Shown: piece by piece, positions 40,920 to 41,732 of the stretch
Layout: each line of letters begins with the position of its first letter
Position numbering within the stretch: position 1 is the stretch's first letter
NCBI RefSeq assembly: GCF_003334255.1
Contig: NZ_QOWU01000049.1
Source of the DNA: Escherichia coli
Lineage (GTDB): Bacteria > Pseudomonadota > Gammaproteobacteria > Enterobacterales > Enterobacteriaceae
Reading direction: 5' to 3' (one strand)
Length of the DNA: 43,106 nucleotides
Position numbers and translations under genes: made by a program
Notes under the pieces: model-generated
Databases searched by the model: none
Told to the model about the DNA's origin: nothing
What the model saw: only the letters and a program-made list of their open reading frames with translations

Positions 40920-41732
40920 ATGATCATTACACAAGCAGACCTGCGAGAATGGCGTATCGGAGCGGTGATGTATCGCTGGTTCCTGCGCCATTTCCCACGC
41001 GGCGGTAGTTATGCCGATATTCATCATGCACTGATTGAGGAAGGATATACGGACTGGGCGGAGAGTCTGGTTGAGTATGCGTGGAAAAAATGGCTGGCGG
41101 ATGAAAACTTCGCGCATCAGGAAGTTTCCTCTATGCAAAAACTGGCCACAGACCCCGGAGAGAGACCATTTTGCAGTCAGTTTGCCCGCAGCGACGATCA
41201 TGCTCGCATCGGCTGTTGTGAGGATAACGCCAGAATCGCAACCGCTGGGTATGCCGCGCAAATTGCCAGTATGGGTTATAGCGTGCGGATTGGAAGTGTC
41301 GGCTTTAACAGTCACATTGGCAGCTCCGGTGAACGCGCACGGGTTGCTGTAACCGGTAATTCTTCGCGGATAAGCAGCGCTGGAGATAGCAGTCGGATTG
41401 CGAATACCGGAATGCGAGTACGCGTTTGTACATTGGGTGAACGGTGTCATGTCGCCAGTAATGGTGACCTGGTGCAAATCGCCAGCTTTGGCGCAAACGC
41501 CAGAATTGCCAACAGCGGCGACAATGTACACATCATTGCCAGCGGTGAAAATTCAACGGTAGTGAGCACGGGCGTGGTCGACTCAATTATTCTCGGGCCA
41601 GGAGGAAGCGCCGCACTGGCATATCATGACGGCGAAAGAGTTCGCTTCGCCGTCGCCATTGAAGGTGAAAACAATATTCGAGCCGGAGTCCGCTATCGTC
41701 TTAATGAACAGCATCAGTTTGTTGAGTGCTGA
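40920..41732 (+). CDS. ydhT: Uncharacterised protein with internal nonapeptide tandem repeats (270 aa)
   Basis: Translation MIITQADLREWRIGAVMYRWFLRHFPRGGSY...; the central region is about 13 consecutive 9-residue repeats (ARIATAGYA / AQIASMGYS / VRIGSVGFN / SHIGSSGER / ...). Confidence 0.8.
   Translation: MIITQADLREWRIGAVMYRWFLRHFPRGGSYADIHHALIEEGYTDWAESLVEYAWKKWLADENFAHQEVSSMQKLATDPGERPFCSQFARSDDHARIGCCEDNARIATAGYAAQIASMGYSVRIGSVGFNSHIGSSGERARVAVTGNSSRISSAGDSSRIANTGMRVRVCTLGERCHVASNGDLVQIASFGANARIANSGDNVHIIASGENSTVVSTGVVDSIILGPGGSAALAYHDGERVRFAVAIEGENNIRAGVRYRLNEQHQFVEC

Follow-up and report, generated by a model that had tools for sequence, protein, structure and literature searches.

The ydhT gene and its locus

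The window considered here is a stretch of 43,106 nucleotides from Escherichia coli (assembly GCF_003334255.1, contig NZ_QOWU01000049.1) that includes ydhT, the terminal gene of the ydhYVWXUT operon. In its list of open reading frames (ORFs), and all on the plus strand, ydhV, which codes for a molybdoenzyme of the AOR family (36649-38751), is followed by ydhW (38755-39402), by ydhX (39466-40134), whose product carries a twin-arginine leader (SFTRRKFVLG), by ydhU, which codes for a cytochrome b (40131-40916), and finally by ydhT (40920-41732), which codes for 270 amino acids plus the stop codon and whose ATG is separated from the ydhU stop by three nucleotides. An earlier inspection of this DNA without database searches (hereafter the sequence-only reading) had described YdhT as a protein of no known function, coded by the last gene of a redox operon, with a nonapeptide array suggestive of a beta-solenoid. 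The first two statements hold: ydhT is terminal in the order ydhV-W-X-U-T, which is the same in relatives, and we found no functional data on YdhT in the literature. It is one of the remaining function-less genes of E. coli K-12, and the enzyme coded by ydhYVWXUT has no known substrate.

YdhT matches the NCBIfam model NF007410 ('protein YdhT') over residues 2-270 with 489.7 bits, against a cutoff of 300. A five-helix N-terminal domain (approximately aa 1-80, 40920-41159), with the motif L8..YRWF..FP.GG.Y, corresponds to Pfam PF27195 (YdhT_N) and leads into a weakly conserved linker (aa 78-85, 41151-41174), which varies in length and is 40-60 residues longer in the orthologues of Limnobaculum, Edwardsiella, and Proteus. 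The nonapeptide array comes next, and the protein ends with a conserved C-terminal beta domain or cap (aa 221-270, 41580-41729) that reads LG.GG.A..YHDG.R.RF....EGE..I.AGV.YRL....F. The PF27195 assignment is precomputed on those homologues with a Pfam match on record, and covers the N-terminal domain only. With the Pfam-A release of our search tool YdhT gave no significant match, including none for DUF7666, HemolysinCabind, ice-nucleation, or curlin models, and we regard the matches to DUF6876 (E = 0.16) and Asp_decarbox (E = 3.1) as noise. No signal peptide and no transmembrane or hydrophobic segment are present in the YdhT sequence, and the protein is most likely cytoplasmic.

The gene is annotated in 5418 of the 5426 complete E. 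coli genomes, and 5413 of them hold a copy of at least 95% identity. A further copy lies in CP025887.1 ('Escherichia phage 503046'), a 23-kb record without annotation that was deposited as a phage genome, in which a 5.3-kb segment (L133, 8684-13945) is colinear with and 98.7% identical to positions 37603-42866 of the window, from the 3' end of ydhV through ydhS; this segment is probably chromosomal DNA, either mislabelled or recorded from a transducing fragment.

Downstream, the stop codon of ydhT faces that of a convergent ydhS-like ORF on the minus strand (ending at 41744) at a distance of 11 nucleotides (41730-41746), with no terminator between the two. The sole terminator-like hairpins near the end of ydhT fall inside the opposing gene (41938-41955 on the plus strand and 41867-41849 on the minus strand), and the pair ydhS-ydhT figures in a published RNA-seq survey of convergent pairs with overlapping transcription.

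The nonapeptide array and its predicted fold

All 13 nonapeptides that the sequence-only reading had listed are in register and contiguous (aa 104-220), and map to 41229-41579, so that the span it gave (41220-41580) is accurate. They form a core of well-formed units, apparent from the nine-residue layout, the autocorrelation, and the composition at each position. The array is longer than had been noted, with degenerate units both before (aa 86-94 and 95-103, the latter ARIGCCEDN) and after the core (aa 221-229, DSIILGPGG), and in full comprises 16 units of nine residues (aa 86-229, approximately 41175-41606). The consensus of the first 15 (aa 86-220) is [AVS]-[RHQ]-[IV]-[AG..]-[ST..]-x-G-[DE..]-[NSR], with the Gly present in 13 and the I/V in all 15. 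Consistently, the mean self-similarity of YdhT, scored with BLOSUM62 against 1000 residue shuffles, peaks only at lags of 9, 18, 27, and 36 residues (z = 10.1-11.0), with all other lags at or below 1.2.

At the DNA level, the expected 27-nucleotide periodicity is detectable by base autocorrelation at 27, 54, and 81 nucleotides (z = 5.4-7.0 against codon shuffles), but it does not amount to a DNA array: nucleotide identity between units averages 41% with a maximum of 63%, and Tandem Repeats Finder reports no 27-nucleotide array in ydhT, only a chance 14-nucleotide pair. The 27-nucleotide period is a mere shadow of the protein repeat. The weak DNA-level period, the low identity of the units, and the absence of an array call indicate that the repeat is old and degenerate, and not slippage-prone DNA. 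This agrees with the constant length of the gene in E. coli. Among 30 rows drawn across the ranking of E. coli genome matches, 29 span the whole query (813 bases in 28 and 812 in one) and the last has 55% coverage; variation of repeat number between strains, which the sequence-only reading had proposed to look for, is thus not seen in this species. Repeat number does differ among genera, and enormously among the phage relatives described below.

The proposal of a beta-solenoid is strengthened by AlphaFold2, which, from an alignment of 16 orthologues, returned a model with a mean predicted local distance difference test (pLDDT) score of 92.3 and a predicted template modelling (pTM) score of 0.88. 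The model consists of the five-helix N-terminal domain (here aa 1-77), a low-confidence stretch of the linker (pLDDT <50 at aa 81-84), 15 strands, and a C-terminal beta domain with longer strands (aa 220-269). DSSP assigns four residues to each of the 15 strands, spaced by exactly nine residues (aa 87-90, 96-99, and so on to 213-216). The array is therefore predicted with high confidence to fold as a beta-solenoid. Each unit in the model contributes a short strand (positions 2-5) and a turn bearing the Gly (positions 6-9 and 1). Two units would make up a beta-roll-like coil of 18 residues, giving a rod of approximately 7.5 coils and 36 Å. Because side chains alternate along a strand, I/V at position 3 and S/T at position 5 would fill the core, with position 2 and the small residues at position 4 pointing outward, and the residues at position 2 (R/K/H/Q) would form a conserved basic ladder on the outer faces of the sheets.

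At the level of fold the model is matched best by a Ca2+-dependent antifreeze protein, by curli, and by RTX blocks, the last with a score of about 11; three-sided helices of the pectate-lyase and tailspike type score 10-13.8, and sequence identity is at most 14% throughout. Sequence and profile searches of the PDB with the protein and with ortholog, N-domain, and C-domain profiles gave nothing significant. A choline-binding-repeat match (E = 0.76) to 'YRVNDxGEFV' was too weak to be accepted. We infer that the fold of YdhT is independent of Ca2+.

Conservation of YdhT and of its operon

A comparison of nine Enterobacterales genera shows that the Gly at position 7 is nearly invariant, that position 2 is basic (R/K/H) in most units, and that Y111, Q114, R141, N147, and R166 in the array are invariant. 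The best conserved region of YdhT is its C-terminal 50 residues (L225, G226, G228, G229, A231, Y235, D237, G238, R240, R242, F243, E248-E250, A255, G256, and Y259). No Cys or His is invariant among the orthologues, and YdhT appears to be devoid of conserved cofactor-binding cysteines.

Relative to other Escherichia species, the ratio of nonsynonymous to synonymous substitution rates (dN/dS) is 0.05-0.10 over the whole of ydhT, 0.02-0.05 in the array (0.17 in the closest pair, L009), and about 0.01 in the C-terminal domain. Purifying selection on ydhT is on par with that on ydhX (0.03) and ydhU (0.07, the comparison with E. albertii being invalid owing to an indel and disregarded). Such low ratios mark ydhT as a protein-coding gene that is functional and constrained.

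When one genome of each species was scanned, 44 loci were recovered, and the order ydhV-W-X-U-T is common to 41 Enterobacterales loci. It is found wherever enough upstream sequence is available (Escherichia, Citrobacter, Limnobaculum, Brenneria, Serratia, Symbiopectobacterium, and Proteus), as well as in Leminorella. In Edwardsiella, ydhU is gone and ydhT is kept; the E. tarda locus (CP100802.1; L003, 5690-10954) reads ydhY-V-W-X-T, without the cytochrome b gene, and adjoins the nap operon. Overall, ydhT closes ydhYVWX(U)T in nine Enterobacterales genera, and since the operon stands in differing chromosomal neighbourhoods across these, ydhT travels with it. Between Proteus and E. coli, identity is 80% for YdhV, 69% for YdhX, 61% for YdhU, 41% for YdhW, and 34% for YdhT. 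The last two are the quickest-diverging products of the operon, which we take for the pattern to be expected of an accessory rather than a catalytic protein.

The longest ORF of ydhX begins 17 codons 5' of the 'MSFTRRKFVLG' leader (39415-39520); the true ydhX start and dependence on twin-arginine translocation (Tat) bear on the periplasmic location of any complex that YdhT might serve.

A family of phage-borne relatives

When 1.84 billion representatives were searched with a profile of YdhT orthologues, at least 1200 cluster representatives reached E<=1e-3, of which 497 reached E<=1e-10. Many matches cover the array and C-terminal domain only, and carry other N-termini. Members of the family begin with a variable domain (YdhT_N, DUF7666, or a DarG-like macro domain together with DUF7666), continue with the nonapeptide array, and end in a conserved domain of 50 residues. 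The units of the relatives are very regular (for instance 'ARIGSSGYS/AQIGSSGDS', 'SQLSASGDD', and 'AQIGSSGHG'), and are followed by C-termini such as RYRVTVAYVGENGIKADTNYRLNEAGEFEEV, clearly homologous to RVRFAVAIEGENNIRAGVRYRLNEQHQFVEC of YdhT, whose C-terminal domain can be aligned to phage C-termini of the form '...DG.R.R.AVAYVGENGIK....Y.LN..GEFVEV'. YdhT combines the array with the '...DG.R.R....Y.GE.GI.....Y.L' domain that together define the family, and matches phrog_4433 over aa 100-270 (E = 1.7e-6). DUF7666 (PF24703) occurs in 9 of 25 remote members, whereas YdhT has YdhT_N in its place; weak PcfJ-like Pfam matches occur as well, with one member at E<=0.001. YdhT is a diverged, length-fixed member of a mainly phage-encoded family.

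Indeed, most relatives whose context was examined lie in early regions of temperate phages. P0068 is found on phage-like contigs of approximately 66 kb, with an integrase on one side and a primase on the other, and P0058 on a contig that also codes for terminase, portal, and capsid proteins. Homologues in isolated phages were recovered by tblastn. Gp55 of Edwardsiella phage GF-2 (L005, 6001-7047) is 36% identical over 90% of YdhT; its gene comes directly after that of an N-like antiterminator and precedes cIII, Erf, and SSB. In Komagataeibacter phage phiKX1 the gene is already named 'ydhT', and adjoins an antirepressor. In IMG/VR, 145 viral stretches were matched by a profile of the C-terminal domain. 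The 5' end is complete in 54 of the ORFs; YdhT_N is present in 23 of these and a DUF7666-like CGxGLH motif in 18, and the number of units lies between 1 and 40. In two such contigs the neighbouring genes code for a CI-type repressor, for an exonuclease, and for a protein resembling Mu Gam. The full arrangement of YdhT_N, array, and C-terminal domain is thus present in GF-2 gp55, phiKX1, the P0058 contig, and the 23 complete IMG/VR ORFs.

The two phage genes examined contain a true DNA tandem array, with a 27-nucleotide period, approximately 21 copies, and 88-89% matches. 'Frozen' chromosomal arrays, degenerate in sequence and in E. coli constant in length, can be opposed to 'live' phage arrays, near-perfect and variable. 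An evolution experiment has in fact recorded an in-frame deletion of 54 bp (two units) in the 1413-nucleotide 'ydhT_1' of a mitomycin-inducible prophage of Serratia symbiotica (PMC12505973), which shows a change in the length of phage-type arrays in real time; the site lies at approximately position 782,372 of the CWBI-GFP chromosome.

Two phage-contig proteins, P0068 (L001/L002, 10001-11641) and P0109, join a DarG-like macro domain (PADLOC E = 2e-20), DUF7666, an array of 22-23 units, and a C-terminal domain of YdhT type. By means of such fusions phages may counter ADP-ribosylation of the DarT type. No PADLOC defence model matches YdhT or the phage homologues with YdhT_N, and DarG is matched only by the macro domain of the two fusion proteins; we found no paper naming DUF7666.

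We rejected a tail-fibre reading of the phage homologues: the PHROG 'tail fiber' matches of P0062 concern the repeats only, and the homologues are coded in early regions, not with the virion genes. P0078 (743 aa), from metagenomic contigs 37-41 kb long, starts with a collagen-like GPxGPx sequence and goes on with about 30 units of a related form, A-x-I-x-T-x-G-x-N, but its long C-terminal region is a different one; the repeat may here be put to a tail-fibre-type use. Database labels on the relatives, among AFDB50 matches and GF-2 gp55, include 'Ice nucleation protein' and 'Hemolysin IA', 'Collagen triple helix repeat' and 'putative collagen-like protein', and also 'Oxidoreductase subunit'; these appear to stem from repeat-driven similarity or from operon position, and not from evidence.

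Origin and possible role of YdhT

The explanation that best accounts for the whole of these data is that YdhT is a phage-derived, non-catalytic accessory or adaptor protein of the Ydh oxidoreductase built around a beta-solenoid, and in our judgement it is about equally likely to be right or wrong. An ancestor of the Enterobacterales would have captured a phage gene at the 3' end of the ydh operon, the transfer running from phage to operon rather than the reverse, and the gene would since have been kept as an accessory to the YdhV/Y/X/U oxidoreductase. YdhT might act as a rigid adaptor or assembly factor, whose N- and C-terminal domains would bind partners while the solenoid serves as a spacer or docking surface. 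The retained basic position 2, the linkage to the operon, the three-nucleotide gap to ydhU, and purifying selection all count in favour of an accessory role. A more specific version, in which an undescribed, Ca2+-independent beta-roll family of early-expressed phage proteins (modular head, variable rod, conserved C-terminal domain) had one member exapted as a required accessory or assembly factor of YdhV, is clearly less probable.

Several points weigh against an accessory role as set out here. The fold is unlike that of known redox-enzyme maturation chaperones. Most members of the family are unrelated to redox enzymes, which implies that its ancestral activity was something else. Class V tungsten/molybdenum oxidoreductase operons outside the Enterobacterales are described with other subunits, so that YdhT is not generally needed by Class V enzymes. 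A recent review of the enzyme class reports no Class V WOR with known activity or physiological role, and mentions YdhW, X, U, and T no further than as additional products of the operon.

The main rival, unlikely though far from negligible, is that YdhT is a domesticated or hitch-hiking phage gene unrelated to the Ydh enzyme, which merely uses the anaerobic promoter of the operon, and might take part in the exclusion of phages, in counter-defence, or in contacts with nucleic acids or the replication machinery, as its phage relatives may do. The bulk of the family is indeed phage-borne, in early, immunity-proximal regions, the macro-domain fusions are typical of ADP-ribosylation conflicts, and ydhT is among the gene clusters tied to infection by one phage in one machine-learning study. 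Against this reading, the gene has remained last in the operon in nine genera, through several relocations and even after the loss of ydhU, and belongs to the E. coli core genome (5413/5426). The lack of any PADLOC match also counts against it, and YdhT has lost the Cys that is conserved in the N-domain motif of the phage proteins (W.AC..G).

It is improbable that YdhT is a metal-centre assembly scaffold like SufB/SufD or NosD, passing iron-sulphur (Fe-S) clusters or molybdenum bis-molybdopterin (Mo-bis-MPT) to YdhV/Y/X, a role weakened by the absence of any invariant Cys or His and, as far as a Suf-like function is concerned, without specific support. Least credible of all is an RTX-like Ca2+ beta-roll, an ice-binding or nucleation protein, an adhesin, or a curli-like secreted fibre: the nine-residue repeat, the best fold matches, and the 'Ice nucleation protein', 'Hemolysin IA', and 'collagen-like' labels of relatives all point that way, but these readings are largely refuted, since YdhT fails their defining tests in motifs, Pfam matches, export signals, and identity to the fold matches.

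If the accessory reading is true, a phage gene has been exapted into the biogenesis of an anaerobic respiratory enzyme. The three-domain anatomy, the conserved surfaces (C-terminal domain and basic ladder), and the true relatives provide handles for experiments on YdhT. The analysis also flags a widespread phage module, with at least 1200 cluster representatives and highly variable rod length, mislabelled as collagen-like, ice-nucleation, or hemolysin proteins, and for which the DarG-like macro fusions hint at a role in phage-host conflict. The structural point itself is no surprise, since many beta-solenoids are built from short repeats and an AlphaFold model of YdhT is publicly available (AFDB P77147). 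The analysis contributes the placement of YdhT in a family, its tie to phages, and the opposition of frozen to live arrays; membership in a phage family was beyond what the sequence-only reading could see.

Comparison with known systems

The RTX beta-roll (HemolysinCabind; Bordetella CyaA, 6sus/7usl) has the same repeat length of nine residues. YdhT differs in having one conserved Gly per unit, zero matches to GG.G.D (GGxGxD) or to the relaxed G.G.[DN], and a position 8 that is not consistently acidic, as well as in its likely cytoplasmic location with no secretion genes nearby in the window; the PDB profile match to CyaA is insignificant (E = 0.24). Region IV of the Marinomonas primoryensis antifreeze protein (3p4g) and the curli subunit CsgA (8c50) have coils of approximately 19-23 residues, are secreted, and either bind Ca2+ or form amyloid, with 10-11% identity to YdhT. 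Unlike these, YdhT has folded caps at both ends (the helical N-terminal domain and the C-terminal beta domain), which would block end-to-end polymerisation.

The period of nine alone, and the lack of Pfam matches, separate YdhT from the left-handed beta-helix of hexapeptides, from pentapeptide repeats, and from bactofilins (DUF583). Likewise, the hierarchy of 16 and 48 residues and the outer-membrane anchor of InaZ-type ice-nucleation proteins have no counterpart in YdhT, which has period 9, no Pfam match, and no export signal, and the 'Ice nucleation protein' labels look like annotation transfer from repeat similarity.

TorD/DmsD/NarJ, NapD, and HyaE/HybE are small cytoplasmic products without cofactors, coded within or at the end of operons for Tat-dependent Fe-S and molybdo-enzymes. 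YdhT can be likened to such accessory proteins by its position and by its divergence, faster than that of catalytic subunits. The analogy is purely positional, as there is no sequence or fold relationship, and neither the all-helical TorD-like fold nor a match to its profile was found in YdhT.

The true homologues of YdhT are the phage DUF7666/YdhT-like early proteins (phrog_4433, phrog_18079, phrog_27197; GF-2 gp55; 'ydhT' of phiKX1). They share with it the unit x-[QKR]-[IL]-[GAS]-S-S-G-x-x, the C-terminal domain, and often YdhT_N, and differ by their near-perfect 27-nucleotide repeats, by swapped N-terminal domains (DUF7666, macro), and by their location in early phage operons rather than in a redox operon.
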